Source: Euglena gracilis
Taxonomy: Eukaryota
Length of the DNA: 64,000 nt
Assembly (NCBI GenBank): GCA_039621445.1
Contig: CP154954.1
Location: 28,638,417 to 28,702,416 of the forward strand
Direction: 5' to 3'
The notes below the pieces were generated by a model. That model was not told where the DNA came from. It made no database searches and worked only from the letters and a program-made list of their open reading frames with translations. Position 1 is the stretch's first letter. Every line of letters begins with the position of its first letter. Shown here in pieces: positions 3,001 to 57,600 of this stretch. The translations under genes were made by a program, and so were the position numbers.

Positions 3001-3487
3001 CACAGTGAGGCGGTGTTGAGCATAAACCCCCCAAATAATAAACCCCCCCTGAGGACCGATTTCGGCCGCCCAAATAATAAACCCCCCCCTCTGGCAGGTG
3101 TGAGGGCAAAGAAAAAAAGGGTCAAAAATTAGCAGAAATGTTGCAAAAAATCACAAAAATGGATCAAATTGGTGCAGAAAATATGCCAAAAAAGCACCCA
3201 TTTTTTTTTAAAAAAAGCCCAAAAATGCCAAAAAAAGTGACCATTGGAGCCTGTGGAGGGGTTTTCGGGTCAATTTTTGTCTTCGAAATTTTTGCCCAAA
3301 TAATAAACCCCCCCTGGACCCCAACTTTGGGTGCCCAAATAATAAACCAGGGGGGTTATTATTTGGGCGTGTTAATTGCATTTGCAAAGCCTCTGGAAAG
3401 AAAATGCAAAAAAGGACATCCAAAGGACATCCAATCACAGTGCAATCGCAATTGGAACCGCAGTGTAGGGACCTTCCGTCCAAAACC

Positions 3488-4213: not shown

Positions 4214-7200
4214 GGCTCCAGGCCGTGGCTTCTCCACGTAGCCGTGCGGGAAACTTCTGGAGAGGGCTGCCCCCCCCCCCAGGGTTTGATATAAAGGCGG
4301 GGGGGGGGGGTCGGACCTCCCCTCCGGTGCAGGAGGGGGGAGGTGGGGTGCCCCCCCACCTAAACAGTGGCGCAGTCCGGCTGACTGATTTTCGGCGAGC
4401 GCGAAGCGGCGGGCCAAAAAAAATTAACCCCAAATGGCAAACATGTCATTTTGGACACTTTTTGGGCGAAATTTGTCAAAATTTTCCAGCGCAAAGTGAA
4501 AAGTGTCAGAAGGAAAATTAAACTATGTTTTTTGATTTTTTGGGGGAGGGTTGGTCTGGAACCCCTCCCTTGGCAGGGGGAGGGTGTCCGACCCATACCA
4601 TTACTTGGCGACCCGGGGGGTCACTTTCCACTCTGAAAAAAACCGGTCAGTCACTTTTTCCGAAAAAGCAGTCAGTCACTTTACCCCCCGGGCGGGGGGG
4701 GGCACTCTTGAATATGCAATGAACATTTGCCAAGAAATCTCAAAAAATCCAAAAAAATTCCGGCGCCTTTGGTGCCAGGCCTGCCCCCCCCCCCGGGGGG
4801 TCTTGGCCAGAAAACCAGTCAGTTCCCTCTGAAAAAACCAATCAGTCACCCCCCGGGGGGGGGGGGGTAGTTGGACAGGTGTTAAGCAATGGCATGGTCC
4901 GACCCCCTGTTCCAGGAGGGGAGGCACCCCACCCCACCTAAACCCCGCATACCCTCTGTATATTGAACCTTGCCCCCCCAGCAATTGTCACACAACAATT
5001 TAGCCAGCAGATGTGGGGGGGGGGCTGACAAATTGGGGGACGGCAAAAAGGCAGGCAGAGGGGGTGACATTTGCCCACTGGGGTAGACGAATAATCAGTA
5101 ACCTTCCGATCTCTTGAAAACACTTTTGATCCCTTCAAGCACATTCTTGAGCATTCAAATCCCGAGTTCATGCGTACATCCAGAGATTGATCAACCAAAA
5201 CTTCCAAAGACTCCATCTTTTGGTGCATTTTTTGCCATTGGCAAATTGCCAAAAGTTGAGGGGGTGACAGTTGCCGCCGGGGAGGTATTACCATGCGGTC
5301 TGGACACAGAAGGGAGGTTCATCGTATCCCCCACCCGGAGCAATGGCCTGACCTTCAGGTCCAGGTACCCACGCCCATCAAACAGGAAGGCGGGCTTCGT
5401 CATCTCCTTGAAGATCTGCTGGTAATCCAGCGTCTTGAACTCGTCCCATTCGGTCTTCGGTAGGGAAGTTCAACCGTCCGGGTCAGCAAGCTTTACTGGG
5501 AGAGGGTTCAGCGCCGTCCTGGTGGGGACTCTGCGAAAGCTGAACAGAGAGAGAGAGAGTCAAATTTCCAGGGACAATCTTCAATCGGGGTCACAATCAA
5601 CCGTGGGAGCTGTTTGTCTGGGCCGACAACATGGCCCCCAAGCCAAACAAATCTATGGCCCCCAAGCCCAACAAATCTGACACAAAAAAAAACAACTGAT
5701 CAGTGGTGGTGAGGTGGCGATTTGCACTTCCCTCGCCAACACCACAATGGCGTGGGCATTCTTACACGCCTCCACGGCCGACTTCTCAATCCGGTAATTA
5801 GACTTTATTTGGTTCAGCAGGTGCTGGTTGCCCTCTGCCACCTCGTTCAGGTCTTGAAGCATTTGCTCCTCAGTGACCTTAGGGTCATGGCAGGGATAGG
5901 TGCCAAGGCTCGTGTAGCCCAGAGGTAAGAACTCCAGTTGGGAACGTCAAGGGTAACCGCCTTACCTGGCTTGTGGTCGTATGGGAAACCTTGGGGCAGG
6001 TTTTATTTTCACCAACCTGGGGGGGTGCATTGTGCTATGGTTGCCTGCCCATAACCAGGCATCATCATTTTTTAAGGTGTCTTTAAAAACGTTAAAATGC
6101 CTTAAAATGTGCCTTAAATTTTTGGGCCAAAATGCCTTGAAAGTCTTAGAATGCCTTGCACCAGGGTGGGCAGGCTTCTTTTTAAAAAAAACAAAAAAAA
6201 AAAAAAAAAAAAATTAATGAAAAAAAAAAAAAAAAAAAAAAAAAATAAAAAAAAAAACAAAAAAAATAAAAAAATTCCCCCTTCCCCCCCAGACGCGTCT
6301 GAGGCCATTTCCCAAAGAAAAAAACTTTCGGCGCTTTGCGCTGAAACCCATACCTTGTAGCAGCCCCGCGCTTCTATCGGGGGGGGGGGGGGAGGCTTCC
6401 GGCCATGGTCAACCATGGCCAAGCCATTGCATCACCCCCCCTTTAAAAGATTTTCATCCAGAGGTTGGCCCGACCCTTTGGTTGGCCCATGCGACATCTA
6501 TGCTTAGGTTTCGGAACCACCTTTGGCCAAAGTTTGTGTTGCATCAAAATTGTGATTGTATGAACAAAAAGTCCCAAAATCAAATGTATTTGTGGTTAAT
6601 TGAAGGAATAGGGTCAGGGACTCTATTCCAATTAGGGCGTCAATTCAGCCAAAGAGGGGGAGGCCAGCAGGGGCCCGTGCAAATGTGGAATCAGGGGATT
6701 TTTAAGACCGAGGGCGGGGTCCCCACCCCCTGGGGGGGGGGCCCGGGCCCGGGGGGGGGGGGGTCCCGGGGGGACCCACAAAAAAATGGTCGAAAAATCG
6801 CGAGAAATGCTAAAAATAGCATCTTTTCAAAAAATTTCGGCACCTTCAACGCCGAAAAGGAAATCCCACCCCCCTCCAGGGGCCCCCCCCCCCCCCCCCG
6901 GGGCCGGACCCATCCCCCCCTGCACTCCCCACACTTCTCCCCACCCCTACACCAATGCCCAAAAAGAGGAGGAATTTCATTTTATTTTTTTTCATCCTCA
7001 CACCTCCAACAAGAAAAAGGAAACAACAGGAAAAAACAATTTTGGCAGTCTCTGCCCCAGTCCCCCAAAAAAGATTCTTTTTTTGCCCCAACCCCCAATA
7101 AATTTTTTCCTCTCGGAACGTAGTTTTTTTTTTGCTTTTGGAGGTGCAAAATGGGCCAAAATAGACAAAAAAAAAAAAAAAAAAAAAAAAACAAAGAAAA

Positions 7201-10200
7201 AAAAAAAAAGGAAAAAATAGACAAAAGTGAGTCAGAGAATCGCCGGAGCCAGATTTTTTTTGTCCTCGTGTTTTTGCTTCCAATGAGCAAAAGAGTTCCC
7301 ACGCCGGTTGGAAAAGGCTACCGGTTGACCCCCTTGGGGTCCCCCGGCTGGAACTGGGTTCGGCTGGGGTCGAATCAAAAAATCGAAGTCCCTGGAAAAC
7401 AAATACAACTTGTTGATGAGATGGTCTGGGAAAAGGCTGCTGGCCAACTGGAGGCCCCCCCCGGGTCCACTGACAGGTCCAATGACAAAGAATATCCCCC
7501 AGAGGAAACGACCTGTCAGCGAAGGTGCCGAATATTTGCAGAATTTGCCACCAGAATATCTGCAATCTCCTGCTGGGGGATGGTCATACGACCAAAGTGC
7601 CAAAACCCCTGCTTCTGTAAAGCTTTTTTTTTAGGTAACCCAAACCCCTGGCCAGGGGGTGGGTGTCGCACGCACCCCCTGACCTAACCCCGACCAGGGG
7701 TGGTCAGTAAACAGGGGGGTTGGTGGGCAGGGGGGGGGGTTTAAAAAGAATCTTCGGAATAACAAAAAAAACAGGTGGTGACACAACTTGGCACCGTGTC
7801 CCTGGGTGTAGCAGTGGACCAGTGCTCCGTCATCCAGGAGCGAGCTGCACACTGGAATGGCGGAGCTCTCCCGCGTATCGCCCGTGTCCTTCTTGAAGGC
7901 AAAGCCCAACACTGCAATCTTCTTGTTGGTCACTGTGTCAAACATGGTCCGCACGATCATCTCCACAAAGCGCCGGCGTTGATAGTCATTCATCGCTGCT
8001 TCCACTCCTGCGCTGAAACAGGAAGTGGAACTCGGTGCACTTTCGATCCGTTTCAAAAAGGCTCAAAACTCCTGGACAACTTTGTGCTGTGGGGAAAAAG
8101 GTTGAAAAATGGGAAGCAGACTATTTCTTACCGACCAGAGGGAGGGGGGGGTGCTATAGGGTGGGGTGCGGGGGTGCTATAGCGTGCCTGCCCCTAGCAG
8201 GCACACCCCCCCCCGGGGGGATAGGGGTCCGGGGGGGGGGGACCCAGAAAATTTTCATTGAAAATGGCCTTTTCCGGGCCCCCGGCGCCAAAGGCGCCGG
8301 GGTCGGAGGGGGGTGCCTGCTAGGGGCAGGCACCCCCCAAAATCCTACTCCCCCCCCGGGGGGGTCAGCTCAGGTGCTATGGGGTGCCTGCCCCTAGCAC
8401 CCCTCCCCGTGGGGTAGGCACCCGACTAAGCACAAGCCTGGTGCCTGCCCCAGCACCCCCCCCCCCCGTGACCCCCCCCGTGGGGTCGGCACCTCACTTA
8501 AAAAGAAAAGCCTGATGGGAAGAAGAAAATTCAATTTTCTAGAATTGTTGACGGCCATGTTGTTGGAGGATCTGGCTGGCGAAGGAATTCCTGGCAATTG
8601 CCAGTGCAGTGAAAAAATGTCTCAGTGAAGGGGTGGTCACCACGCTGTACCAATAATCCCCCACCTCGTGCAGCCCCAAAGAATTGGATAGGTAGACCAG
8701 GTTCAGGATGTCCTTCTGAAAGCAGGAGCCACCAAATCCAACGGACGCCTTGAGAAACTTCCGGCCAGGCAGGTCCTGTGTTAAGATCCGGGGTTTCTGG
8801 CTTCTGGGTGCCTGTCCATGACAACGTTTCGGACAGCAGTCACTGGGATTTTGGGGTGGGCCCGTCACCTTTTTAAGAAGTAAACCCCGGAGCTTTTTAA
8901 ATTTTAATTTGTTGGGTAATCATGTCTCCTGTGGCAAATGTGTTGCAACTCTGGTGTGAACGCCCTTTTTGTGCAACACAAACCAACAAAACGACGGCGC
9001 GGTTTGCGTTGTAATGTAGTGTGGTGTGGTGTGGTGTGGTGTTTTGGGTTGAGTTGCCTTGTGTTGTGTTGTGTTGTATCGACAGCATCGGCCCGGTTGG
9101 GGCCAATGCGAGAGTCCCGGCCGATGGCGAACGCGACCTCGTCGATGTCCGCCCCGGTGGCCTCGCAGACGGCGGAGATGGAGTTGATGGAGGAGATGCG
9201 CTGCGCCAGAAACGCGTTGGCGGTGAGCTTGCTGAGCTCGCTGGACCACTGGTTGGTGGTCAGGATCCGCTCCCGCAGAGGCAGCTGACCTTGGGGGGAG
9301 GGGGACTGGCGCGCCCACTCAGGACCAGAATTGCAAAAAGAAAAATCCCGGCCATCATCAGATTGTCAGGGGCAGGGCCAGGGACGCATGGGAGGCCTTG
9401 AGGGGCGGGGGGGTCGGACTCCCTCCCTCCAACCTCGTCACTGAAATGGGACCATTTTTTTTTCAGTTTGTGGACGGGCAAAGGTACGGATACCAGTCCA
9501 AAATTGTTGGAAAATCCCTGATTCCATTTGAAAACAGACCAAACCCCCCCCCAAAAAATACGTTTGACCGTTTTTTTTATGTGGAAGACACCAAAACATC
9601 CAAAAATGGGTGGGCAATATGCTCAAAAGTGAGGAAGAAGGTGAAAATTATTCACTTTCCAGTGCAGTGCCGGAAGGAAAACAGCTATTTTATGGAACCT
9701 GCTGCACACCCCTCCAACAACGGGGGGGGGGGTCCGGACCCCCAACCACCTGCCTCAAAACCAAAGGGCTTCCCAACTATCCCTGGGCAGGGCTGCAGCA
9801 GGGTGTGCCACCACGAACGGAGCTCCCCTCCCGGGTTTGATATAATGGCAGGCACTGGGGGGAACCCCCCCCCTCCAGGCATCGCCCCCACTGTTTTTGT
9901 GGAGGGTCCGAATTACCGCCTTTCCAGCAAGAAGCACGAAGCACCGGAGAGAAATTTTTCCCGCGTAATTACACTCAGGGGGGGGGGAAATGCGCTCGCC
10001 CGGCCTCGGAAAAAATGTGCAAAAAAAATGCGCAAAAAATGCGCATTTTTGGAAAAAATGCGCAAAAATGTGCAAAATCCGAGGAAAAATGCGCAAAAAT
10101 CACGAAACTGCAAAAATTACCCAAAAACATGCAAAAATGGCACCAAATTTGAAGAAATTATGTAGAATAATGAGGGAAAAATGTACGTTTCAAAAAAGTC

Positions 10201-13200
10201 AAAAATTTCAAATTTTTGCAAAAAATTGCAAAAATGGTCAAAAAATGCGAAAATTTTGGAAAATCACAAAAAAGGGGACCTAGGATCAAAGAAACACACA
10301 AAACTGGAAACCATCAATGGATGGAAATGGAAGTTGAAATGAAACTATGTGCAACCAAAATCAGCTGTGCGGCACCCATCGTGCATAGACAGAGCAGAGG
10401 AGCTCACAGGCCTTCTGCCCGCTGGGTGTTTGAGACCCACCGATCAGCGCCAGGCATTATTATTATATATTATCATCATTAAAAGTACCTTGAAAAAGCC
10501 TTAAAATACCTTAAAATGCACCTTAAATTTTGGCCAGAATGCCTTAAAATGCGTTAAAATGACTTAAGAAATGAGACCAGCAGAATCTTCTCCGACCGAG
10601 CAAAAATGAAACGCAAAATCTCGGCAAAACAGGCCGAATTCGGGAAGAAAAATGATCTCTGGCATCGCTGAAACATTGTCTATCCAACCAAAACTCAAAA
10701 ACTGCGTTTTTCGACTTTCCTTGATTTTGGACCACGTGCGAAATCAAAACGTTGGTTAGATGCCCGGATCGCCCATGGACCACCCTGGAAAATTGTGCCT
10801 TAAAATTCCTTAGAATGCCTAAAAGTGTTGGAAAAAATTTGACCCTAAAATAAACATATATAATACATGATATATATATATATATATATTATATTGCATA
10901 TGTAAAAGATATATGCAAAATAATGCCTGATCAACACACGGTCGGGTTTCAGAAGATCCTCAATGGCTGTCCCCTCGGCAAGAAACTCGCCAGCACGTCA
11001 GCACTCAGACTGATGACACCGATGTGGTGTGTTGACTCTGACAAGGCATCTGTCGGTGGGAAAAAAATGGACCAGGATTGTCATGAACCAACTTTTGAGA
11101 AAAGGATGACCGGTGAAAAATGGTGGCGAAAAAAATGGGAGCACTGGTGTGCTCTGGGTTTGACAGTACTTCAAATGTGGCAGAGGTGTCAGCACCAGGG
11201 ATTGACAAGAACATAATTTGGGAGTCAAACACCCCATCAGTGGCACACAACAGTGACACAATGGAGCAAACCCATGGCCAATGGATGGGGTAACTCAACC
11301 CTCTGGGTATAGGGCAATCAAAAAAAATTATAACAAACAAACTTTCTGGGTGTTTTGGTAAAACACCCAGAAAATTTCCAGATGCTTCTTTGCCATAATT
11401 TCATATTCCTAATTCTGGAGTGATGTGCTGCTAAATTTGCCAACCTGCTTTCAAAATCCAGGTTTGGTTCTCAATATTTGTGATTTTTGTTGGACTTGAC
11501 ACGAAAGAGGGGTAATCAAGGAAAGTGGAGAGCATTTTTAATGCCCAAAACATGTGAACAGAGTATAGCCAATGATTACAGCCATGGGTCGTTGTGGGTC
11601 GTCAGGGTTGAATCAGAGAGGGTCATTGCCAGAGTGTGTCCTATGTGGGTCTATGGGTGTGTGTCCTATGTGGGTCCAGAGTGTGTCCTATGTGGGTCCA
11701 ATGTGTGACCTATGTGGGTCGCAGATAGGGGTTTTTTGAGGCAATCATCAAAAGAAAAGTCATGGAGGTTCCTTATGGTGCCCTCCTCTGCTTAGAAGCG
11801 GTCCATCCACTCGCATTTCATTTTCATGTGACTCAGCTTCCACACTCCCAGAGCTTCTTGCATGCAATAGGTGCAAAGTGGGGGGATCGTTACAAAAGGC
11901 AATTGTTCGAAACGGTGCGCGGTCGACCTCCTTACGTCAAACCCTGATCAGCACTGCATGCCTTCAAGACTCGCTCAATGGCAACGCTGCAGCGAACAGG
12001 CACTGTGGACTTCTCCACAACCACCTTGTTGCCAGACTTCACAGTCCTTGCAAGGAGGATTTAATCTTCAGAGGGGCCATGGATTGCCGACCAATTGTGC
12101 TCCCCCGGCTTCTTTTAAAGACCCCCCACCCAGCCCAGCAGGGGACCGCCTTGCCCAATTTTTTTCTGGTGCTTCTCTCCGGAACCCATGCCCAAGCTTC
12201 CGCAGGGACACCCCCCCCCCACATAAGGGACCGGACCATACCATTGTTTACCGACCCCCTTACTTACTTTCCACTTTCAAAAAACCAATCAGTCACTTTT
12301 CAAAAACCAGTCACCCACTTCCCACCTCCTTCCTGGGGGAGGGGGTTGGTCACTTTGGCTACTCGGCCAAAATTTGCCAAAAATCAAAACATTTTTAGTC
12401 AAAAAAAAAAATCCGGCGCCTTTGGCGCCAGGTGGCCACGTCGGCCAATCCTGACAACCCCCCCAGGGCAGAACGGGAAGGCCTGGTGGGGGGGGGGGTC
12501 GACCCCCCCACCCGGGAGGTGGGGGGGGGGTCGACCCCCCCCACCCACTACAGCGTTTTCACCGATTTCAGGAAAAAGGGGATATTGGCCGGGAAGATTT
12601 TTGAATTTTTTTTTTGAAAAATGAACCCAAAACACATGATTTTTTGATGGAAACCCACATTTTTTTCACAAAAAAATATCAAAAAATTTCAGGGTTAAAA
12701 TTGGTAGTTTTTAGGAGGGGGGTGAAAAAAACGAACGTCAAAAAAAGTGGACAAAATTTTGGCACAATCAAATTTTACTGCCATTTTTTCTCGTTGAAAA
12801 TTTTTGGACTTTCAATGGCATTTTTTCTGCTTCAAAACCTCTCAAAATCAACATTTTGAGAAAATGTTGAACTTTTGGAAGGTGTGAGAAAATGCGGTTT
12901 TTGGGTGTTTTTGGGGGGGACCCCCTATATGGGTCCCAAAACGGGTCAAAAAAACACCCGGCGCCGGAAAATTTTTTTCGGGTCCAAAAATTGGTGCTCC
13001 CGGAAATACGGGAAGAGGTGGTGGGGGGGGGTGGTCGACCCCCCCACCCACGGGGGGGGGGGGGGGGAGCTCGGCCGGACCCACCGGGGGTCCACAAGTT
13101 AAAAAAAACCCCTGGTGTCCTTCCAAGCTTACCTCCCCTCTTGAAAGGAGTTACCAATTTTGTCAGGCATATAGCGTACCACCAGGGGAAAGAATCCCCT

Positions 13201-16200
13201 GCCCCAATTGGTCAAACGTGCGGCTTGGGGCAATGCTGTGCAAAATATGTCTAAAATTCTAAAATACACTCTGCAAAGCACTGGAGGAAAAAAATATAAA
13301 AAATAATAACCTCTTGGGCATCTACCCCTCCCCGGGAAACTGTCAGCAAATACGGAGGTGAGTAACAGTTTCCCGGGGGGGGGGGTCAGAGGTAAAAAAG
13401 GAGAATTTTTAAATCCCCGGGGGGGGGGGGTTGGACAAGCGAAGCTGCGTGCCACACTTCGGTTTTTTTAAAAAAAGAAAAAAGAATTTTTTCAAAAACA
13501 CGACATTTTACACTTTTATTTTTCAAGGTTCAAAAAACATGTTCATTGAAAAGCTGGAAGGTCAACAAAATCGTTGGGGGCCAGTAAATATTTGGACAAT
13601 GTAGACCCCCAGGGTTTCATGCAAAGAGGGTGTGCAAATTTGGTCACTTGCTTGTTTAAAAAATGGATCCACTTCAGACCAGGATCAATTCCAGGTCGCC
13701 ACACTGTGTGGCTGAACCATCCTTGATCGTTGCAATACGACGGGCAGCACCTTCAATGTACTTCAGATCTGCCGCTCGCCCTTTGCCAATCCCATGCAAC
13801 TTGGTGGGTGTGAGCAGGGATCAGGCTTCTTTTTACCAACCCCGGGGGGGGGTGCCTTGTGCTATGGTGCCTGCTGTCCACAGCAGCACCCCCACCCCAG
13901 GGGGGGGGGGGGTTGGTTTCGGCACGTGGTGCCTGCTGACACAGGCAAATTTCCCTTGAAAACGGCCATTTTTAGCACTACCCACCCCAAAACCGGCTCC
14001 CGGGGGGGGGGGGGGGGTTGAAGGTACCCTACCCTCCTGCTGGCCCACAACCCCACAGGGGGTGGTGCAACTTTCCGAAACAAAAAGAAGCCTGGCAGGA
14101 ATCCATCAACTTTCTGCTGCACAAATTTCACCAATGCCCAAGATTGTATGCATGAATATTGATATTGATTTTGTTTTTTTCCGGTTTTTGTGCTTTTTCT
14201 TTTCTCTGGTTCATATGCCATTTTTTTCCATTTTTTGGGGGGATTTGGTAAGCCCACAGTTGTTGGAGGAACATGCAGGGGTGACCACCTCCATGAGCGG
14301 TGTGAAATGAAATTTCAATATTTGTACCAAAGCTACAGTTTAAAATGAAAAAAGTACACCTTAAATTTGAAAACAGTGCATAATAGTGTGTTCGGTGCAT
14401 AATATGCATAATCAGTCCAGAGGTTTCCATGAGGTTGCACCCATGTGTCTCCTCCTCACCCTCTCCTCAAAATGTCGGGGGGGGGGGGGCGGTGCACCTG
14501 GATGGGTGGATGGGGCAAGGCTGGTTATTGGATATCGCTCAATATCGCAAATATCGAAAATATCGCCAAGGGGTGCAATATCTCGCAAAAATATCGCAAT
14601 CCCTCTTTTTTGCCCTTCTACCGAAAATCCCTATTTTGTGCGTTTCCTCTGCGTCTGCGTTTCCTCCCCTCATATTGCACCAAATCACCAAATTCATAGG
14701 GGAAAACAAATAAAGAAATGGCAAGCAGATGTGACACAATTTTCAAATGACTTGGCTGAATTTCCTTAAAAAAAATACACGCGAAAAAAATGTGCTCCAG
14801 AAAAGAGTCGTTGACAGGGGGGGGGGGTGTCAACAACACGCTGTGTCTTGGACAAGGGGAGGAAGGGGGTATGTGATTTCTTGGGTCCCAGGAAATGTAA
14901 TCCTGACTTTTGGTTACCTGAGGCTTGTAGGCAGATGGAGCCTGGTCACCACGGAGGCTCTGTGGAGGCTCCGCGGAGCCTCCTCCAGGTGACCAATTTT
15001 GTGCAAAGCCATCTCGCACAAACAAATCACACCAGATCCCACTGTCCCACACCATAACACACCATATTTTGCAGCTTTCCACCATTTTCTTTACAATTTT
15101 TTTGCAATTTTTTTTTATATTTTGGGGCCTTTATAGAAGCTAACCCTTGACCCTACCGAGAGAGAAAATTGCAATACCACCACCACCCATCGGAGTCTTT
15201 TCACCAAAATGTGGTTGCCCACAGGTTGTCTGTATTCGGCCAGACTGGAAGAAACACTGTTCAGTTGTTCTTTGTTCCATCGTTCTCTTGGGGCAGTTCG
15301 GGGTTTGCCACACACACACACACACCATCATGCACATGCACCTGACAGGGTTTACACAGCGGCATTTACCTGTTGGCAACACCGTCCCAGTGGCATGTAC
15401 ACCACCCCAAACCCCCCTGCTGACTCTCCGTGTGACTTGTGGGGGGGATTCCCAAAAAGCCCACATCACCCTCCACCATCGGGGGGGGGGGGGGGTGGCT
15501 TTAGTCACACTTCTTTCACAATCATTCCAGCATTCTTCTCCCATTAATGCCACTCCCTGAATGTGTTCACAGACATAAACACGATGTCCGCTTCTTGGAG
15601 TTCCTCATCGAAGCTGGTGGTGAAGAAAAGGTTCTTGCCACGCTGCTGCTTTACAATCTCCTCCAGTCCCGGTTCATAGATTGGAAGTTGGTCTGAGTTC
15701 CAGGCATCAATCCGCGCCTGATTGATATCATGGATGGTCACCTTGACATCTGTCACAGGGCTTCCGATGAGAGGAACTGTTACCGCCTGTGCTCTCCCCA
15801 GGGGGAAGATAAAAAGAATAAAATAAATCTGCTGTCCCAGCACATTCAATGAAACCCCAGAGGAAGAATGGGCAAAAAAGAGCCAAATTTTGGCAAAAGC
15901 GGCTCGAATTCGGTAGAAAATGTGATTTCCGGCATCCTTGGACTATCGCCCATCCACCCAAAAGGTCGAAAAATGCATGTTTCGACCTTTTTGTTTTTGA
16001 GGAGGAGCCCACACCGCGGTTATCACCGCGGTTGCACCGCGGTCACACCGCGGTGTAACCGCAAGGTAATGGAGGTCAAAATTCTCTTTCAATTCACACG
16101 ATGATCTTGGTTTGGATTCCACCTGTCAACAATTTGGGATATTTGAGTTCCAAAAACAGGCTAAAAGATGAATTGAACCAATTTACGCGTATCGCGAAGC

Positions 16201-19200
16201 GCCGAAGGAAAACTTTTGGTGTTTCTGGGAACCTGGAAAATGATGTCTTTGGGCCGTTGGTAAAAAAAAAATCCAAAAATAAGATCCCCCAAAAATAAGA
16301 ACCCCTGCAGTTTTTAAGTAACGGACCCAAAAATCCCGGGTCTCATTTGGGTCTCATTTCCCCCCCTCCAACCCCAGCGGCATGAAGCACTGGACTGATA
16401 CTGATACCTTTGCTCTTGTTCTCACTGCGATTACACCGCGGTTACCTGGGCTCCTCCCGACCCGGTTCACGCCCCCCAGTTCTGCCCTTGGCAGACAGAC
16501 TCTTAGGCCTGAGGGCTTCAGGGCCGTCCTGAACAGGAAAAAAAAGAAAAATCTCGTCCCGTATGGACCACCCTGGCTCTCTCCATGCACCCTTGGGGGT
16601 CAGGGCCAAAGATGCTGTTCAAAACAAACACTTCAGACTGAGAAACATGTTTAACCCCCCAAAACCAACAAAAAAGCATGCATGAAACTTTTATTTGGCA
16701 AAACCATTGCCTTGTTGTACCCGCCCCCCCCCCCTTGTCTAACGACCGGGTTCCTACGACCCCCGACCGGGGGGGGGGGCGTACCCCCCCAACCTGCAAC
16801 CCCCGACCGGGGGGTGGTCTTACCACTAGGGGCAAAACAAAACCAAAAGCCAAAAAAGGTGCAATTTCATAACGGTAATATTTCTCCCCATGAGGTAAGG
16901 GACCAATAACCATAGCAGCAACAGAGGTGCTATCACTACGCTCAAACAAAACAGGACTCCCCGGAGGGAACACGAGGAACACTCAATGGACAGGAAACAC
17001 GGGAAAAAAGCTGGTCGACAAGCACATGAGAGGTAAAACATTTTGGTGGTCACCTGCAACCCCGACCGGGGGGTGGTCGTACCCCCCCCCCCCCAACCTG
17101 CAACCCCCGACCGGGGGGTGGTCGGTATGTAGGGGTGGTCGGTGGACAAGGGGACAAGGGGGGGGGGCGGGTACTATATCGAGAACTGTGTCCCAGACGC
17201 CGGTTCGGGCGGGAAACCTGTGCCTGGGACGCCGGTTCGGGCGGTAGCCCGAACGGGCCTCCCAGGCACAGCTTACCCGCCCGAACCGGCGTCTGGGACA
17301 CAGTTCTTGAAACCATGGCTAGGGGCTCCGTTTTCATGCCCGAACCGGCGGCTAGGGAATCACGGCCAATTTCGCCCAAAATACCCATGTTTGGGGCAGT
17401 TTTGGGCGATTTTGGCCCAAATGGGCCGCCGGTCAAAAATGGCAGATTCCACACTTATGAAGCCATGTTACCCATTAATCGAAAGCTCTTCTCAAGGGCT
17501 TTCGACAGATAATCACAGGATTCGGCCACAATGCACGCAGCGCTTATTTTCAGCGATCGTGTATTCCAAAATTTGACATCCTAATTTGTCAAATCCCACA
17601 GTTCAGGTTGCAAATTGCATATCAAACGAAAGGTCTCGCCAACACCTTTCGCTTGGTACCCACAGAACTCAGCCAGATTGCAAAGCGACCTCAAAATCAG
17701 CGATCGCATTTTTCCGCATTTTTCGGACCCCATTTGCATATCTGAAATTGCACTTTTCAGCTGCCATGTTACCCATCGATCGAAAGCTCTTCTCAAGGGC
17801 TTTCAGCAGATGGCCTTAGATTTCAGCCATGCTGTGTGGTATTCTATTTCAGAAATTCTCCAAAATTGGCCAAAAGGAAACTTTTCCTCAAAAACCCCCA
17901 ATTTTTGGCCCAAGACCACCCAAAAGCTGCGCAAATGTGATTACCACATGTCTACAAACCCTTTTGGACACTTTTTGGCACTTTTATTTTGGGTCCCCCA
18001 GACGCCGGTTTCCCGCCCGAACCGGCGTCTGGGACGCCGGTTCGGCGCAGAAATTTCCCGCCCGAACCGGCGCCCCAGACGCCGGTTCGGGCATGAAAAC
18101 GGAGCCCCCAGAGACGGTTTCAAAAACAGGTTGTTTTATTCTTGACATCCTTAATCAGAATTATACCGTTGCTCAGCAACACCCCCCGGGGGGGGGATCT
18201 GGAAAACCAATCACCCAACTCCCCAACCCCTCCAGGGTCGGTCTCAGGCTTCTTTTTAAGACCCCCGGGGGGGTCCCCCCCCACCCACCCAGGGTGGCGC
18301 GGGACCCCCCCGGGGGGGGGGGGGGGCGGGGACCCCCCCCCCAAAATCGGGCCCGTTAAAGGCAATTTCCAAAAATTTTCGGCGCTTTGCGCCGAAAAGG
18401 TATACCCAGCGCCTCCGGCGCGGGACCCCCCCCCCCAGGGGGGGTCCGGCCCGGACCCACCCACCCACCCCTCCCCCCGGGGGGGGGGGGGTCTGCTGAC
18501 TTAAAAAGAAGCCTGGTCGGTCTCTGGCCACTGGGACCAAAATGACTCAAAAATCAACACTTCCACTCTGGAAATAATGGTTCAGTCCAGGGGTTTCCTT
18601 AAAGACCCTGGGGGGGTTACCGCTAGGGAAAAAAAAGGTGCTGGCTGGAAAAGGGGTCTACCGGCAGCTGAACCGGGCTGGCACCTCGAAAACAGGCAAG
18701 AAAGCCCGAATCCAGCCCGAATCTCCGTTGACAAGTGCCTCTTTTTGAAGCCTGAAAATTTTTTGAGGGCTGCAGCCGGCTGTTCAGAAACGGGATAAAT
18801 TGGCCCCTACACGGTACCAGGTACCCCAAAGAGCCGCCCAACTGGGGTTAATGCACATGGGGGGACCCTCGCTTGGCGCCTCACTCAGGTCCCCCCATGT
18901 TTTTAACCCTAGTTGGGCGGCTCTTTGGGATTGCTGGGAACCTTGTAGAGACCAATCTAATAACGTTGGAGGCTAGGCGCGCCGCTCGGGGGGGTCCGGG
19001 CCCCCCCCCCTCCCCCCCCCCGCGCGGCCCCTGCGCGGCCGCCCGCGCGGCCGCTCGCCCCCCCCTGGACCCCCCCCCTCCCCCCCTGTGCCTAGCATAG
19101 CCAAGAAAAAAATTTTTGGTGAAAAAATCGTGATTTTTGAGGCCCAAAAATGACCAAAAATGACCATTTTTGGACACAAAATGGCTAATTTGAGGGCCGC

Positions 19201-22804: not shown

Positions 22805-23952
22805 CAGGGTTTCCCACTGATTCGTACTTGGGGACTCCCTTGCCCATTCGTACTTATTCGTGCTTATTCGTACTTATTTGTACTTATTCGCACTTATTCG
22901 TACTTCAAAAAAGGGCCATGTATATTCCTTGGGCACATCTTCAACGTTCTGAAACCGGGAAAAACAAGGAAAACAAGTCATTCACTTGAGAAACTATCTA
23001 AGTGAAAAAAAATCGCGCTGTGAGAAAAAAATACAAAACATTACAGGAAAAACACATTCCTTCTTTGCGACTGATGTTGTCCAGCATGCCATGCACGAAC
23101 AAATACTCAAAATGAAACGAGCGGATTGATTAACGGTGTGCAAAGCGTTCTTCGCAGTCACCATTGCAAAACATGCCAACAGCTGCTTGCCGAAGGTTAG
23201 ATGACATGTGTTGGCGGTTTTGACATCAATCAGTCCTGCCAAACTGAAAGACCATTCAGACCAGGGCAATTCAATTTTGTGAGCCACACTTTCTTCCCGC
23301 TCAAAGATTTCCTTATGCTCGCAATGTGTGTGGTATACACTCTGACCACTGACCGGTGCAAACTATTCCCCTCTTTCACACTGCCATGTACAGATGTGTA
23401 CTTTCGGATGAGTCCCCTGACGGATGGATGGTCTAACTTGTTGATGGGCAAACCTAAAAATCATTTTCTGAGGGAAAAGAGGACATGAGGCGTCCTGCAG
23501 CGTAAGATATGCTGCAGCGTAAGATGTGCATCACATACAGAGAAGTGTGAGGGGACCTTCAACTCAGTGCAATGGTGTAAAAAAATGTACCCCCCCCCCC
23601 CTTTATTTGAGCACACCCACGGGCCAACGGACCCCCCAAATGCTCAAATAAGGGGGGGGTCAAATAAGGGGGGGTCAAAAATTCCTTTAGAAATAGGGCA
23701 AAAAAAAATTTTCGGCGCCTTCGGCGCATGAAAAATTTTTTTTCCCGGACCCAAATGCTCAATTAAGGGGGGGGGGGTCAAATAAAGGGGGGGGGGGTAC
23801 CTTTTTCTACTTGGCAATTCGTACTTATTCGTAACTGGGGAATTCTTCATTCGCACTTATTCGTACTAATTCGTATTTTGGCAGACCTCGGCAATTCGTA
23901 CTTATTTGTACGTATTCGTACTTATTCGTGTACGAATCAGTGGGAAACCCTG
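22805..23952. mobile_element. 1.15-kb TIR element with CAG/CTG ends
   Basis: Perfect 23-bp TIR CAGGGTTTCCCACTGATTCGTAC; AAAAAAT on both flanks; subterminal TTATTCGTAC repeats. Confidence 0.85.
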
Positions 23953-28804: not shown

Positions 28805-31800
28805 ATGACGACATGGGTAAGTGCTGCAAATCAGAGAAGGAGAGTTTGTTGGCAAGCTCATTCCCATTGCTGGCGGCCGTTCTTACATCGTCAACACAGA
28901 TTCAGGTCTTCATTCAATCCTTCTCAACACATTTCTTTCCAGTAAACCCCCCCTCCCTAATAGAAGCACGGGTGCGTTTATAGCGGACTGTCGCCTCTGG
29001 CGGCGGGGGGTGTGCTTCTATTTGGACCCTGCCTGCCCGATTTTTGTCGATTTCCTTTAAAAATCTCATCAAAATGGGGGGTGCGCTTGTAGTGGACCGC
29101 CCTCTTCGACGGCGGGGGGGGTGCGCTTTTATTTGGACCCTGCGCTTTTAGCGGCCCCGCGCTTCTATTAGGGGGGGCGGGTTTACCCCTTTTTCACAGT
29201 GGGACCTCTCCATTGGACTCCCCTTTTCTCAATTAGTGGGGTTCAATTAAGGTCATTTTTGGACTTTCCGCAGAAAACTCCCCATTCTGGTGATTCTCTG
29301 AATAAAAATTGTGAGTATCACCCATATGCACATTATCACGTTATCCTCACCCCCCCCCATTTGGTTAATGCCCGGGCTCCATTTGCCAATTAGGGGGAGG
29401 GGCGAAAGTGTCCAAAAGGTTTGTCGACATGTGGTAATCATATCTGAGCAGCTTTTTGAGTGCCTTCGGCCAGAAATTGGTTGTTTTTAGGCAATCATTT
29501 CCCTTTGGCCAATTTTGGGGAATTTCTGAAATAGAACATCAGTAGCATAGCTGATATCTAAGGCCAGCTGCTGAAAGCCCTTGAACAGAGCTTTCAATTA
29601 AGGGGCAAAATGGCAGATGAGCAGTGGACTTTGGAATTTGTGAAGGCTGATTGGAACACGCTTTTCAGAGCGCTTTGCAGTGTGGAGTTCTGAGGGTTCG
29701 AAGCGAAAGGTATTGGTGAGAGCTTTCGATTGATATGCTAAATAGTATTTGAGCTGGGATTTAACAAATTAATACCATGCCCCCCCCCCCCGAGCTGTCC
29801 CCCCCCCCCCCGAGCTCCCATAGGGGGGACGGGAATAGCTCGCTGTCATAGCACTTTTTACAAACTTCCCAAAAAAGTGCTCAAGAATCGACGTTTTTGG
29901 GACGTTTTCAAAAATCGCTTTTTGACAAATGTGCACAAAATTGACCATTTTTTGCGAACATCCAAAAAAGTTGCCAAAAATGACCCCTTTTTGGGTTGCC
30001 CGAGGGTCGTGTATGGGAATAGCTCGGGGGGGGACCCAGGTCCCCCCCCCCCCCCGAGCTGTTCCCCCCGTACTGTTCCCATTGGGCCGTAAAGGGTCTC
30101 GGGGACGGGAATAGCTCGGGGGGTGGGCATGGTACGTCAATTTCTGGAATACAAGATTGCTGAAAATGAGAGCTCCATGCATTATAGTTAAATTCTGTGG
30201 CCATCTGTCAAAAGCCCTTCAGAAGAGCTTTTGATTGATGGGCAATATGGCAACAGAAGTGTGAAATCTACCAATTTTGCTCGGCGGCCAATTTGGGCCA
30301 AAGTCGCCCAAAAGTGTCCAAAACTTGGGTATTTGGGTCGAAATTGACCGTGATTCCTCAGACGCCGGTTCGGGCTGTGCCTGGGACACAGTTCTCGTTA
30401 TGGGTAATCTTGGACAGCCTGCTCGTGATCATCAGCACGTTATTTTGACACCCAAAAATCCTTGTAAATCGTGAACAAGCTGTTTACAAGTATCAGCGGT
30501 TATTTGGGGGGGGTCCAAGTATTGCCCTGCTAATCGTGAACCAGAAACCAACTCTGTAAAAATACCACAGCAGTATCCGGGATTGCGTTCAGGAAACCTG
30601 CTGGTCCTGGAAAAGGTGATATGGGCTTAAAGCCATGTTTTTGGGTAAGGAGGGCGTACATGGTTTAGGATGGGGGGTGTCCCCCCCCCCCCCCCCCCCC
30701 CCCCCTGGCCCGCAGGGGGCGGTCCGGACCACCCCCCCCACCTGCCAGGGGGGTCCGGACCGACCCTCGGGGGGGGGGGGGGTTCCCGGGACCCCCCCCC
30801 CAAGGGTCAATTTTTTCCTCCGGCGCTTTGCGCCGAAAATTTTTTGCATTTTTGGCACATTTTTGCCAAAAAAGTGCCCAAAATGGCACTTTTGGTCGTT
30901 TTGGGGGGGTCAAAAATTTTCGGCCCGGCGCTTTGCGCCGGGCCGAAATTTGGTAACCCAGACCGCACACCTGTTTAGGTGGGGGGGTCCCCCCCCCTCT
31001 CCTGGCCCGCAGGGCGGGGGGGTCCGGACTACCCCCCCACCTGTCCTTATATCGAACTCTGCCCCACCCCCCATTTTGAACCCCTGGCCACGCCAGTCCC
31101 CTATTTTACCCCCATCCCCCATTTCCAACCCCCTGGAGCTTCCCCAGTTTTTTTTGGCATTTTTCTTCGAAAAAGTCACCAAAACCGACAAAAATGCCCA
31201 AAGTTTGAAATTTCTAAATCGAAAAAAGCTACCATACAGTGCGGACAAAACTTACTGGAAACAAAAATTATGGAAAACCACACAATTTTCCCGTAATTTT
31301 TGTCCTGTAATTGTTGCCCAATAAACATTTACTTGGGGGATTCTAAGATCTAAAATCATTTCATTATCTGCATTTCGTTTTTAAAAGAAAAATCTTTGAA
31401 ACTTAACTTTGTTTCAACTCCTTTCCTTTTGGTGCAGCCCAAAGAGTTAGCATCTCTGTCCCATTTTGCTGCCAGCATGGACCATTTTCCCTGAACTTTT
31501 GAATTTTCATCACAAAGAATAAGATGGCTCTGGGTATAAGACAACAAAAGGAGCATTTTACCACCCCCCTCAAAAGTATTGCTTTCAAATTGTTTGTCCA
31601 TTGGCACCACAGCGGTCGGAAGTTCATGTCCATTGCACCTATGATAGTTTTTGGGGCTCGACAAACTGCGCATTAAAACACAATTGATTGCTGTTGACCT
31701 GCCGCTTGTGCCCACCGACCTTGCTCCAAAACCTGCACCCATTCCAACCGCTTTGCAGGGCCTGGCCCTGTGGAGGCAAAGTGTGGTCGACGGCTTCCTC

Positions 31801-34800: not shown

Positions 34801-37800
34801 ACATAGATATTTTTATAGATATAGACATAGATATATAGATATAGATATAGATATAGATATAGATATAGACATAGATATAGATATAGGCATAGATATAGAT
34901 ATAGATATAGATATGGATATAGATATAGTTATAGATATAGATATAGATATAGATATAGATATAGATATAGATATAGATATAGATATAGATATAGATATAG
35001 ATATAGATATAGATATAGATATAGATATAGATATAGATATAGATATAGATATAGATATAGATATAGATATAGATATAGATATAGTTTAGGACCCCCCCCC
35101 TGGGGGGTCTTATAGTTTCCACCTTCTATATATATGTATATATATATACTCATACGTGCATGTATATCCCCAAAGGGGTCCAAAATTTCTTTGCGTTATT
35201 GAGAAGTGGGGGTTAGGGTTTGGAGTTCGGCCTAACTTGTACACCTGACACCCGTCTATAAGTCAGGCCAAGTTAGGCCCGACGCCCACCCCTTACCCTA
35301 TTCCATCTTTAACCCAAAGTTTGACCCCCCCCTGGAGATTTTACTTGGCCCCCCCCGGGGGGGGGGAGTAAAATCTTGCTGCCATATATATGTATATATA
35401 TGTATATATGTATATATATACATATATATATACATATATATATATATTATTTTTTTTTGTAAATGGAATGTCAGCCTGCTTTTTGTTTTTGGTTCATTTC
35501 CTTGGAGCTTTTCATTGTTCATTCTTTGGAGCAGATGCCGTTCCTCTGGTGAGAGAGAAACAGCCTGCATTGAAGGAACTCAACCCCAGACAGTTTTTTT
35601 CTTGATTCCAGAATGGCACAGATGACCACATTCCCCCACTGCGTTGCCACCGTTTACCTCGTTGTTGAGGCATTCCATTTTTTTTTTCACTTCACAAAAA
35701 TCCAATGGCTGGTCCCCAGGGCTTGGTAGGAAGTCGGAAAGGATTTTGAATGTGTGCATTGACATTGATGGCGCTTCTGAAAGGGGGCTCTGGTCTTGGT
35801 TTCTTTTGGCCTGGTCACCTGGAAGCCAGGCAATCCAAAATGGAAAACAGTGACTGCATCAAAAAAACAAGTCAAAGGATCAACCCAACAAATAGCGAAA
35901 TAAACATATTGATGAAATGGTTGGCCGCTGGTGCTGATAGAACCAAATTTTTTTTGCAAAGTAGTGCACGTGTGCGGAGGTGTCTTTGCGCCAAATTCTG
36001 CTTGCAAATTACCATTAAAGGTGGGTTTTTTCCTGCCTTTGGCCCACCTGGCCTTCCCATACAGCTCTGTCACCCCCCCCCAGGGTTTGATATAAGGAGG
36101 GCGTACATGGTTTAGGTGGGGGGTGTCCCCCCCAACCCCCCCCCCCCTCCTGGCCCGCAGGGGGGGTCCGGACCCCCCCCCCCACCTGCCAGGGGGGTCC
36201 AGACCGACCCTGGGGGGGGGTACCCGGGACCCCCCAAAAAGGGTTCATTTTTTTTCCTCCAGCGCTTTGCGCCGAAATTTTTTTTGCATTTTGGTAATTT
36301 TTTTGCCCCAAGAGTGCCCAAAATGGCACTTTTGGTCGTTTTGGGGCTTCGCGCCGGGCCGAAATTCGGTCACCCGGACCGCGCCACTGTTTAGGTGGGG
36401 GGGGTGTCCCCCCCCCCCCACCCCCCCCCCCCCCTCAGGGGTGGGGGTCCGGTCCCCCCCCCCACCTGTCCTTATATCGAACCCTGCCCCCCCCCCTCCA
36501 GTCCTGATGACCTTGGGACAAAATGGAGTGGCATATGGAAGCTTCGAAACGCTTTCAGTACCCTCCATCATTTATACTCTGTTGACTGCAGCTGCCTTGC
36601 TTGGGCAATGGTGCATTATTGCAACAATTTTTCTGCAGAAGTTTGTTTTTGAACCTTCAATTCTGAGAAATGGAAAGCGGACAAAAAATAAACCCAGCAA
36701 AAAATAATCATCTGTATTGAGTTAACATGTGCCATGCCAATGATTACCCCCCGATTGGCCCTCCGACCAAGACGAGGGCCAATCATGCAATCATGGGGGG
36801 TCAATTAGGGGGGGTCCCCCCAAAGCCCCCCAAAAACGTCAGCAGATGAAAATCCAGATCTCGAGGGTCAAATATGGGGGGAGGCGATCAAGGGGGGGGG
36901 CATGTGTGTTTGAGAATTACAATTTGCAGCCCCTACTACTTTCCTTGGGCATAACGCTGAGATGGTGGGAGGCCTGTTCATACCAGTGGGATAGGGTTTC
37001 ATGTCCCCAACATTTTAATGCCCAGGACTTTGGGAGGGTATGCAGATCTAATCCTCTTTTCTTGTCGTTATGGGATTATGACAAAAGAACGTGGGTTGAG
37101 ATATTGGACTGGCAAGGAATGATTGGCACCAAAGTAAAACTTTGACCTGAAATTTTCTCTCCTGGAAAAACGGGAAGGCCAAAGGCCAGGACAAGACCTT
37201 TCAGGAGTTTTTCTGGCTGATGTTTTGTGGTTTGGGTGGGTTAGTGGGTGGGATGGTTTTCTAAAGAAAATGAGTACAAGTATGATCTGGAGAAAAGTGC
37301 ACCGGAGGTCATTGAAGGTCAGCGAATCTGTGGTGAAGGTTCTGGTGTGCCACTGAGATCATCTGAGGAAAGGCCACAATTCTTATTGTTCAGGGGGGGG
37401 GAAAAATTGATATCCGCAATTTTTCCACAATTTCCGCAATTTTCCGCAATTTCCGCAATTTTCCGCAATTTTCCGCAATTTTTCCGCAATTTCCGCAATT
37501 TTTCCGCAATTTTTTCCCATTTTTTTTCCGCAGAATTTTTTTCTCACCACCGAAGATGGAAGATGCAATGAGTTCAAGCCATTCTTCAAATGGATCAATA
37601 GGTGTGCTATTGTGTTTTGTTGTTTTTTCCCCCTAGCTTACCAATTTTTCTCACAGGTGCACCACTGGTTACAGAATTGGGTGCGTCCCACCTGTGCAAA
37701 AAACATCAAGCGTGTTGATTTGTGCTCGCCTGCATCGACGTGGGTGTTGCGGTGTCCTGAACCTCACAATTGAAAAATTTCTAAGTCGCCTCAGACAGAA

Positions 37801-54600: not shown

Positions 54601-57600
54601 GGATGGGGGGTTCCGACCCCCACCTGCTGCCTGGGGTGGGTGGGTCTGGGGCCGGACCCCCACTCCCCCCGGGAGGGGGGGTCCAGGAAGTAGACCTGCG
54701 GATGGGTTTCGGCTCAAACTGCCTGATTTTTTTGGGAAATAAATGCACTTTTACAGCCCATTTTTTGGGGGGGGGTCCCTTGGGAGGTCCCTCGCTGGGC
54801 TGGGTGGGTTGGTAGGACCCCCTCCCTCCCCCCTTGGTCTTACATGCGCCTGTTTCAGGGCCAAAGCAACAGTGCCCTGTCGGAGACTCGTGTGTCGGGG
54901 GCATCACAGAGGCCCTCGCCCAGTGCCTGACGTACCGCGTGCGGATGCAGCAGCTGCGGACAGGGCGAAATGGGACCCCAGAAACCGTCTGGGCGGCCAG
55001 ACCCCATCCCGTCCCCATCCGGTGGGGGGGTCCGACCCGGTTCAGGTTGGTGTGGTTTCGAGAGTGGGGGGCACTGCTCTGGTGTGGGCTGCGCCAAAGG
55101 TCAGTCTGGCCCAGTCGATTTCCCCCCAAAGTTTTCAGCTCATTTTGGTTGTTTGGTGGGCGTGTGGGTCGACCCCTTCGGGGGAGGGGGGGCGGGGGGT
55201 CATGTGTGAATGTTCAAAAGAAGCAGGCGGGTGGGTTTGGCCCAGGCATTTGCTTAAGGACCCCGGGGGGGTGCTGGCTAGCCAATCGGCTAGACACTGG
55301 AAAAAATGGACTAGCTAGAACCCCCCCTCCCCCCGGGGGGGGGGGGTCCGGAGGTCCCCAGGACTGGAAAAATTTCTTAATAGGTTTTGGGCTGTTTTGG
55401 GCTGATTTTGTTCCAAAAATTCCCAAAAATGGCCAAAAACGGGCATTTTTGGCCATTTTTGGGGGTCCCAAAATTTTTTTGGCGCTTCGCACCGGTCACT
55501 GGGAAAAAATTTTCCACTAGCTAGCCCTGCCAGCAGACCCCCCCCCCGGGGGGGGTCTGCTAGAAATCCCACTAGCCAAATTTAGACTAGCTGCAGTCCA
55601 GCCCCCCCCGGGGGGGGGTACTGCAATCCCTTAAGCAAATGCCTGGTTTGGTCCCCGGGACACAAGTTTCCCCTGGGCCGTCACTCATAAGTGAACTCTG
55701 TGACCCAACCCCCGGGCTTTCCCGTGCCGCCGTGGCAGCGGGTGTTCGTCCCCTGCACCGCCCCGGGCGACGGCAGCCCGCTGCTCCACAAGCTGCACGT
55801 CGCGGTGCCGGAGATGGCGCGGGCGCCGGACGTCATCGTGCTCGCGCTGCAGCAGCTGCAGGGCGAGCAGGCGAACGTGGCGCCGGAGCAGCGGCTCTTC
55901 TTCCACACCAACCCCAACTTCTACCGGCTGCGGGTGGCGGAGGTGTGCGGCGCGGCGAATGGGTTGGCCGGTTTTTTTTGTTGGCTAAAACCCCCCTTGA
56001 CGGCCGCCTTTCCAAGTTTGAATATGTCCGTTGAAAAGGAGAATGCAGGTAGTGTGACCTGCCATGATAAAAATCAGAGCATGGGGGGGGTGGATTAAAA
56101 AGGACTCGCTGTACAGAAGCAGGCGGTGGCCAGCGATGGTCACTGCCACGTGACCCCCCCACCCCCCAACAATTTAAACAACGCAGGTTTCAGCCCGCTC
56201 AAGGGGTTGTTTAAAATTCGGGGTTGCTGAAACTTGGGTTTCATCGTACCTGATGAGGGGTTGCTTAAATTCGGACCACATGGTCAACAGAGAAAAGTCT
56301 ATCCTTGTCCAATTGAAGGACGAGGCCTTTTTTCAGAGCGAAAATGCACGCATGCAGCCTCAACCGGTTTCCGCAGAAATTCAGCTTTTATTTGTTTGTT
56401 TAAGCTTTGCTTTCATATTTCCTATATTTGCCCCTTCCTTTTGCCTCAATTTCAGGGGTTGCTTGAATTTGGAATTTTCATCTGGATTGCATAAATTTGG
56501 GGGGGTTTCCTCCCCCTTTTCAGATCCCTTTTGCGCTTTGCCACCCGAAACAGAGCCCCTCCCCACCGGCCCGGAACCACTTTCTCTCTGTTACTTTGCG
56601 TTGGAGGTGGAGGTCACATGTGAGCGGTGTTTCGCTGGCGCGCACCGTTCCACCACGTCTTGCCGTGGGGGTCTTCCAACCTGCGCCGGTGCCCGCCTTG
56701 CTGCAGGACGACACCGGGACCATCGAGGAGGACGTCCCGGCGCTGGACTGGAACTCCAAGGTCAACCGCCTGGACACGCTGGTCATGTGCTGCAGCGACG
56801 GCAGCGAGAGCGGGTGTCCGCCCCCGGACCCAGGGGACCCCCCCCCCCCCCCTGCCCCAGGGGAGGGGTGCCTGACTGGTTTTGACCCAAACCCCCTCCC
56901 CCGGGAGGGGGGTGGTCGGCGAAAAACCACCGAAGTGACTCGCCGCCGAAGGCACTGTATGATTTATTTATTTGTTTATTTTTATATTATTTTCTCACGT
57001 TTGTAGTCGAATTTTTTTTACTGGATCCCAGGCAGGCATGTGCTTAGTCGGGTGCCCACCCCACGGGGCGGGGGGGGGGGGCTAGGGGCAGGCACCACAT
57101 AGCACCCAATCCGACCCCCCGGGGGGGGGGTAGGTTTTGGGGGGTGCCTGCCCCTAGCAGGCACCCCTCCGACCCTGGCGCCGAAGGCGCCAGGGGCCTG
57201 GAAAAGGCCATTTTCAATGAAAATTTTCTGGGTCCCCCCGGCCCCCCCCCCCCCCCCCCGGGGTGTGCCTGCTAGGGGCAGGCACCCTCCCCCCCCCTGG
57301 TCAGTAAGCACAAGCATGATCCCAGGGAGCCAAAATGACTGACTGGCTTTCTGAAAAAAAGTGATTGACTGGAAGAGTGGAAGTGATCCCTCTAGGGGGG
57401 GGGAGTCGGAAGCAGGGCCATTTTTTTTTTTTAAGCCTGAGGAACTCTTCCTCTGGGTCCAGCCCAGCCAGGCTGTGACGCCCCTCTGCCCTCTGCTGAA
57501 ATAAAGTTGGGGCCAGCCCAGGCCCGACTGATAGTTTTGAGGAAAAAGGGTCGAGAATGGCCATGAGCACCCCCCCCCCCCCAGGAGGGACCCGTAGCCG

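Follow-up and report, generated by a model that had tools for sequence, protein, structure and literature searches.

The locus examined here raises the question of whether an intron of a protein-coding gene can at the same time be a DNA transposon insertion that is removed at the RNA level. It is located in a stretch of 64,000 nucleotides of Euglena gracilis (contig CP154954.1 of assembly GCA_039621445.1, positions 28,638,417 to 28,702,416 of the forward strand), which we designate the window and within which all coordinates are counted from its first letter, and it corresponds to intron 4 (759 nt, 11191..11949, minus strand) of the gene coding for UDP-glucose dehydrogenase (UGDH). According to the study in which their splicing code was defined, nonconventional introns account for 71.8% of the introns of Euglena agilis, and how the nonconventional introns of euglenids arose is still unclear (Nomura et al. 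2025, PMC12501133). A derivation from MITEs (miniature inverted-repeat transposable elements) was proposed in 2013 on the basis of the inverted ends of these introns, at a time when, by the account of Milanowski et al. (2014, PMC3935182), no transposable elements had been identified in euglenid genomes. The analysis presented here indicates that intron 4 is probably a transposon insertion which nonconventional splicing takes out along with one of the two copies of an 8-bp duplication.

The exon boundaries on which intron 4 is defined are secure, as a reading made previously from the sequence only had maintained. A transcript-derived protein of 420 aa (P0002, named EG_transcript_14324 by its source), which carries three UDP-glucose dehydrogenase Pfam domains, is 100% identical to the genomic exon at 15762..15562 (-), and its comparison with the window by tblastn delimits twelve blocks of exon between 20434 and 5395, with UGDH on the minus strand. 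The genomic reading frame extends upstream of these blocks and puts the start of the gene near 20494, and because of this the numbering of the intron used in the sequence-only reading holds. From the mapping of P0002, exon 3 (11950..12045, minus strand, 32 residues) ends in ...LKACSA and exon 4 (11152..11190, minus strand, 13 residues) starts with DTSATF..., the protein crossing this junction exactly. In addition, the spliced product at the junction aligns without gaps with its closest relatives, P0003 (85% identical) and P0053 (71%).

We have enumerated, across each UGDH junction, every pair of donor and acceptor sites that reproduces P0002. For intron 4 this results in nine equivalent cut positions, each removing 759 nt and yielding the same protein, eight of which arise from identical nucleotides. 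Borders of the GT/GC...AG type are found at 0/9 of these positions, and one position corresponds to GT...TG. The nonconventional code, 5'-N3CDG-/-CH'GN5-6|R, was defined by knock-in mutagenesis, and in the experiments described splicing is lost when the 5' spacer is altered by 1 bp, and the 3' spacer tolerates small changes only (Nomura et al. 2025, PMC12501133). Intron 4 has CAG at +4..+6 and CTG at -8..-6, and the next exon begins with a purine, G; indeed, 11949..11191 is the only one of the nine positions that fits N3-CAG...CTG-N5|R, being read as GAT-CAG...CTG-GTGCT|G, that is, as GAT, an element and GTGCT. Written out on the minus strand the junctions are gcagtgct|GAT CAGGGTTTGACGTAAGGAGG ... 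CTTGTCAATCCCTG GTGCT|gacacc. A terminal stem is present in both the minimum free energy and the centroid folds, and the intron as a whole folds with an energy no better than that of shuffles (z = -0.22), so that meaning can be attached to the terminal stem only. As judged from these features, intron 4 is a nonconventional intron of the euglenid type, since it has no GT/GC-AG solution, fits the code, has paired ends and, as P0002 indicates, is removed from the mRNA, and its splicing anatomy shows no difference from that described for such introns (PMC12501133, PMC3935182).

The anatomy of a DNA transposon is also read from the sequence of the intron. A unit of 751 bp (11196..11946, minus strand) has CAGGG...CCCTG termini, with 5' terminal 20 nt CAGGGTTTGACGTAAGGAGG (11927..11946, minus strand) and a 3' terminal inverted repeat GTCAATCCCTG (11196..11206, minus strand), which form the stem noted above: the 3' end in reverse complement, CAGGGATTGAC, pairs with the 5' CAGGGTTTGAC in 10/11 bases. 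This unit is bracketed by an upstream duplicate, GTGCTGAT (11947..11954, minus strand), made up of 5 exonic nt followed by 3 intronic ones, and by a downstream duplicate, GTGCTGAC (11188..11195, minus strand), made up of 5 intronic nt followed by 3 exonic ones. The two flanks are identical at 7/8 positions at n=8, at 0/7 positions at n=7 and at 0/9 positions at n=9, and the probability of a 7/8 match by chance is about 4e-4. Inverted termini and a flanking duplication found in the 8-base register only support the view that intron 4 has the anatomy of a DNA-transposon insertion. In fact, the 5' spacer of the splice code coincides with the final 3 nt of the upstream duplicate and the 3' spacer with the initial 5 nt of the downstream one and, as 3+5=8, the RNA would therefore lose the element and exactly one 8-nt duplicate. 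The interior further contains a tandem repeat with a 22-nt unit in about 4 copies (11629..11725).

A second line of evidence relates this unit to elements outside the gene. The 20 nt of intron 4 starting at +4 match the end CAGGGTTTGATATAAGGAGG of a MITE (36081-36100) at 18/20 positions, two being different. This MITE, of 406 bp (36081..36486, plus strand; ends CAGGGTTTGATATAAGGAGG and CAGGGTTCGATATAAGGACA; flanks C8/C8), serves as the reference of what we call family B and has three relatives in the window, the copies being 76-80% alike: a second copy with a truncated left end (30646..31061, plus strand; identity of 80% across 428 aligned columns), a copy from 53807 that is partial and has about 45 nt of the left end in common, and a degenerate relative of 693 bp (4280-4972) with flanks that are 7/8 C. 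Allowing up to 3 mismatches, the 20-mer is matched 6 times in the window where 0.04 matches would be expected, 6 matches being reached in 0/100 shuffles, and for the 12-nt core there are 15 occurrences where 2.96 would be expected, one of these occurrences being coincidental and located in exon 4 (11154-11165). Local alignment of the first 80 nt of the intron with the left end of the reference MITE gives 20/23 identities and a score of 31, and the best score among 300 shuffles in which CAGGG was kept fixed is 26. It should be considered that family-B ends differ among themselves about as much as the 5' end of intron 4 differs from the reference. Taken at the level of sequence, the comparison supports homology between one terminus of intron 4 and a family of MITEs that is represented elsewhere in the window. 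The 18/20 terminus, the pairing of the opposite end with it and the 7/8 target-site duplication had all been put forward in the sequence-only reading, and each was recovered letter for letter at the coordinates given, the last as GTGCTGAT/GTGCTGAC. At the scale of the window, the likeness of the 5' terminus to the MITE exceeds chance (0/300 and 0/100 shuffles).

These figures bear on the explanation that intron 4 is an ordinary, possibly old, nonconventional intron, whose ends are kept by splicing and whose likeness to the MITE and flank repeat arose by chance or convergence. Such an intron needs CAG/CTG and paired ends, so that the 20-mer is partly constrained, and short direct repeats are reported at 84.4% of E. 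agilis introns (PMC12501133); moreover, the interior of intron 4 is unique in the window, and a match to the 12-nt core is also present, by chance, in exon 4. However, when CAGGG is held fixed the probability that 13/15 of the remaining bases match is about 9e-7 for each comparison, and the flank match is confined to the 8-base register, as it is around clean MITEs. Also, the spacers of the code are specified as N in the published definition (PMC12501133), so that splicing leaves the direct repeat unexplained. We consider this explanation improbable.

The reading of intron 4 as an insertion finds support in other elements that show the same register. We have carried out an unbiased scan for exact 10-nt inverted repeats placed 80-3000 nt apart. 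Outside the cluster of repeats at 59-62 kb, the adjacent 8-mers agree at 7/8 positions or more in one pair of poly-A type (2437-3228) and in three elements that are clean, the latter all starting with CAGGC and ending with GCCTG. The first, C1 (271 bp, 18245..18515, plus strand), is inside UGDH intron 1 and has an inverted repeat CAGGCTTCTTTTTA matching at 14/14 positions and a duplication GTCGGTCT at 8/8; the second, C2 (273 bp, 13822..14094, plus strand), is nested in UGDH intron 2 at a distance of 2 nt from its 3' terminus, with a 7/8 duplication, GCAGGGAT/GCAGGAAT; the third, D (403 bp, 55243..55645, plus strand), has an inverted repeat CAGGCATTTGCTTA of 14/14 and a 7/8 duplication, GTTTGGCC/GTTTGGTC. 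Within UGDH itself, intron 6 (10446..10932, minus strand), read as GAT CAGGCATTATT...AATAATGCCTG GCGCT|G, presents the same anatomy as intron 4 with a perfect inverted repeat of 11 nt, and its flanks GTGTTGAT/GCGCTGAT agree at 6/8 positions at n=8 only, which makes it a second transposon-shaped intron in the gene. The recurrence of the 8-base register around C1 (8/8), C2 (7/8), D (7/8) and intron 6 (6/8) supports intron 4 as an insertion. In a census anchored on CAG..CTG, an inverted repeat of 10/12 or better was present in 80 pairs, 6 of which show at least 6/8 flank identity at n=8, including UGDH introns 4 and 6 and one low-complexity pair (18290-19067), and in controls in which the flanks were shifted outward the corresponding numbers were 2, 0, 1, 0 and 0 pairs.

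The same elements are informative with respect to an origin by repair of a staggered double-strand break, in which fill-in would have given the 8-nt repeat and filler DNA would have been captured (cf. Milanowski et al. 2016). A strain-specific intron of E. agilis gapC with eight-nucleotide direct repeats is ascribed to such repair in the report that describes it (PMC4770533), and the unique interior of intron 4 would suit filler DNA; nevertheless, filler is expected neither to have inverted termini that abut the repeat nor to carry a 20-nt terminus common to a MITE family, and the fact that non-genic elements with like termini carry the same 8-bp repeat fits integration by a transposase, so that break repair appears quite improbable. 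It is likewise hardly probable that an older intron gained its family-B terminus secondarily, through a nested MITE or recombination near the 5' end that would leave only that end transposon-derived: the likeness to family B is one-sided, and nesting beside an intron terminus does occur in UGDH, where C2 has duplicated the CAGGG of intron 2, but it is the entire 751-bp unit, and not a sub-part, that lies between the copies of the 7/8 repeat, and within intron 4 there is neither a second family-B end (up to 4 mismatches in 17 nt) nor an internal pair with its own duplication.

If intron 4 is a transposon insertion, the following sequence of events can be proposed. A DNA transposon that is non-autonomous, measures 751 bp and ends in CAGGG...CCCTG would have entered a continuous coding exon at the target GTGCTGAC, duplicating these 8 bp. 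In the pre-mRNA the inverted termini of the element would pair, and nonconventional splicing would cut 3 nt before CAG and 5 nt after CTG, the sum of 8 meaning that the element and one duplicate would be lost and that the frame preceding the insertion, ...KACSA|DTSATF..., would be restored. We infer both the insertion event and the exact cut positions from the anatomy described above. The element would have been moved by a transposase in common with family B, probably a hAT-like enzyme as suggested by the 8-bp duplication and the CAGGG ends. Indeed, the hAT superfamily (Ac/Ds) is characterized by 8-bp duplications and CAGGG-type ends, and its non-autonomous elements resemble those of the window in having an 8-bp duplication, short inverted termini starting with CAGGG and the form of small non-coding units. 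A difference is that some look-alike elements of the window carry 7-bp repeats. The few duplications available fit a hAT target consensus only half the time, and this was not used as evidence. Merlin DNA transposons, which are described in E. gracilis with duplications of 8-9 bp and termini ending in a conserved 5'-GG-3' (PMC8101967), fit as to the length of the duplication; by that description their termini differ from those found here, which start with CAGG and have CA/TG inside the inverted repeat.

A number of observations weigh against the interpretation of intron 4 as a transposon insertion. The evidence for its splicing consists of one database protein, P0002. Of the words sampled from 10300-12100, a share of 0.82-0.92 is present in 14 sequencing runs of DNA type (24 being listed) and a share of 0.05-0.17 in runs guessed to be RNA, from which nothing is concluded. 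An inverted repeat alone is no evidence of a transposon, as paired termini are needed for nonconventional splicing anyway, according to the study that defined the code (PMC12501133), and that of intron 4 matches at only 10/11 positions compared with 13-14/14 in the clean MITEs of the window. Repetitiveness is a defining property of mobile elements, and the interior has no second copy in the 64-kb window and does not align to any family-B copy. As for the 3' end, its similarity to family-B ends is no better than that of shuffles, although by eye 11/12 of the first positions of a degenerate family-B core match before the sequences diverge. Moreover, the family-B copies that can be scored lie in runs of C (C8/C8; 7/8 C), a target unlike GTGCTGAC, and because of this the length of the family-B duplication is uninformative. 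Finally, neither a transposase nor a coding context was detected: Pfam matches were found in 0/20 of the open reading frames scanned out of the 124 of at least 130 aa, these being 10 among the longest and 10 that overlap or neighbour loose MITEs.

In the sequences compared, a strict assignment of intron 4 to family B fails on the interior and is ambiguous at the 3' end. The objection from the unlike interior is weakened by the fact that shared ends with different interiors are usual in the window, as C1 and C2 have their 29-nt ends in common and are only 64% alike overall. In respect to the sequence-only reading, which regarded intron 4 as a young element-derived intron, what stands are the inverted termini, the 8-bp duplication and one family-B end; the interior remains without a match and the 3' end does not rise above shuffles. 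Its proposed youth gains no support from the sequence: the copies of the duplication differ at one of eight positions, and in length the inverted repeat falls well short of those of the clean MITEs.

An intron that originates from a transposon is not without parallel. Introners reportedly were the object of a study by Huff et al. 2016, and a Ds-derived intron in maize is said to have been the subject of Giroux et al. 1994. The introners of Micromonas, Aureococcus and dinoflagellates, as presented in a 2024 review (PMC11282704), likewise have inverted termini and a target duplication, with the frame being restored on removal; they are spliceosomal, with GT-AG-type sites provided by element and duplication, whereas intron 4 has no GT/GC-AG solution and follows the nonconventional code. 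Another parallel is the fourth intron of gapC in strain ACOI 323 of E. agilis (Milanowski et al. 2016, PMC4770533), which is also nonconventional and also has eight-nucleotide direct repeats; its recency is established there by its absence in other strains and its origin ascribed to break repair, whereas UGDH intron 4 has the link to a MITE terminus instead. For nonconventional introns in general, the review just cited mentions terminal inverted repeats and repeats resembling target-site duplications, as well as their release as circular RNA (PMC11282704). Beyond what characterizes these introns, UGDH intron 4 adds a terminus in common with a MITE family located outside the gene and a nearly intact 8-bp flank repeat. 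In the literature searched, supplements lying outside the search, we came across no paper in which a nonconventional intron is linked to a named family of free elements, or in which the 3+5 spacers are equated with the length of a duplication. Intron 4 is a clear new example of an anticipated kind and not a new kind, given the MITE hypothesis of 2013 and the 8-nt repeat of 2016.

What this locus contributes is the presence, side by side in one 64-kb stretch, of MITEs that end in CAGG...CCTG, have clean duplications of 8 bp and lie outside what can be recognised as coding sequence, and of an intron with a 20-nt terminus of a MITE family and a 7/8 duplication, in which the experimentally defined spacers of 3 nt and 5 nt sum to the length of that duplication. 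For the hypothesis of a MITE origin this suggests a sharper form, which can be tested genome-wide and by the published knock-in assay. In its general version, the nonconventional splice code would be the RNA-level mirror of one DNA-transposon superfamily that is present as loose MITEs, and most nonconventional introns would be decayed copies of it, a proposition for and against which we see the balance as even. If true, each insertion of a CAG...CTG element into an exon would be removed with one duplicate, and the gene would survive.

The remaining introns of UGDH can be viewed in this light, with the limit that their CAG-type and CTG termini were set by eye. In introns 1, 2, 4, 6, 7 and 8 the spacer sum is 8, and the flanks match at n=8 in 1, 4, 7, 6, 3 and 5 of 8 positions, respectively; this totals 26/48 compared with 12 expected by chance, which lends support to intron 4 as an insertion, and 19/40 when intron 4 is left out. 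A spacer sum of 7 is observed for introns 3 (13728..12047) and 10 (7807..5887), with the flanks of intron 3 matching at 5/7 positions at n=7. These two depart from the published code, which in the form reported allows a 3' spacer of 5-6 nt and not of 4 (PMC12501133). A second class of non-genic elements with CAGGG...CCCTG ends carries 7-bp repeats (22805-23952, 44435-44851 and 37391-37913, with 7/7, 7/7 and 6/7 identical positions), and the occurrence of such elements beside UGDH introns with a spacer sum of 7 suggests that the rule tracks the length of the duplication made by each class of element. Introns 5 and 9 are atypical, and intron 11 has a GC-AG solution.

Some further observations concern the gene and its repeats. 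At 13814-14102 the duplication made by C2, GCAGGGAT/GCAGGAAT, copies the terminal CAGGG of intron 2, which results in two candidate 3' ends, the distal one now reading CAGGA. The genomic exon at 5740-5886 encodes ...EACKNAH... where P0002 has ...EACRNAH..., one residue that may reflect an allele, a strain or a paralogue, and at 5290-5454 the UGDH frame runs past the end of P0002, with at least one further intron and exon below 5395. Family-B-like solo ends, for which no partner ends were found in the window, are located at 9831-9847 and 13610-13629, inside UGDH introns 7 and 3, and at 38241-38257; at 38257 the initial 13 nt are identical to those with which the 5' end of intron 4 begins. Exact copies of the 20-nt family-B terminus in four metagenome contigs were discarded as chance identity, as they represent a single bacterial-looking locus in which the terminus overlaps a ribosome-binding site, TAAGGAGG, followed by ATG.

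Elsewhere in the window, a large inverted repeat at 34148-35084 has arms of about 280 nt, which are 90-96% complementary and composed of 12-nt tandem units. The region 59400-61900 is densely populated by short palindromic repeats of the TTGCGCA/TGCGCAA type and is the source of many spurious matches of inverted repeats and flanks, and a long GC-only tract of the (CGGCC)n type extends over 26180-26560.

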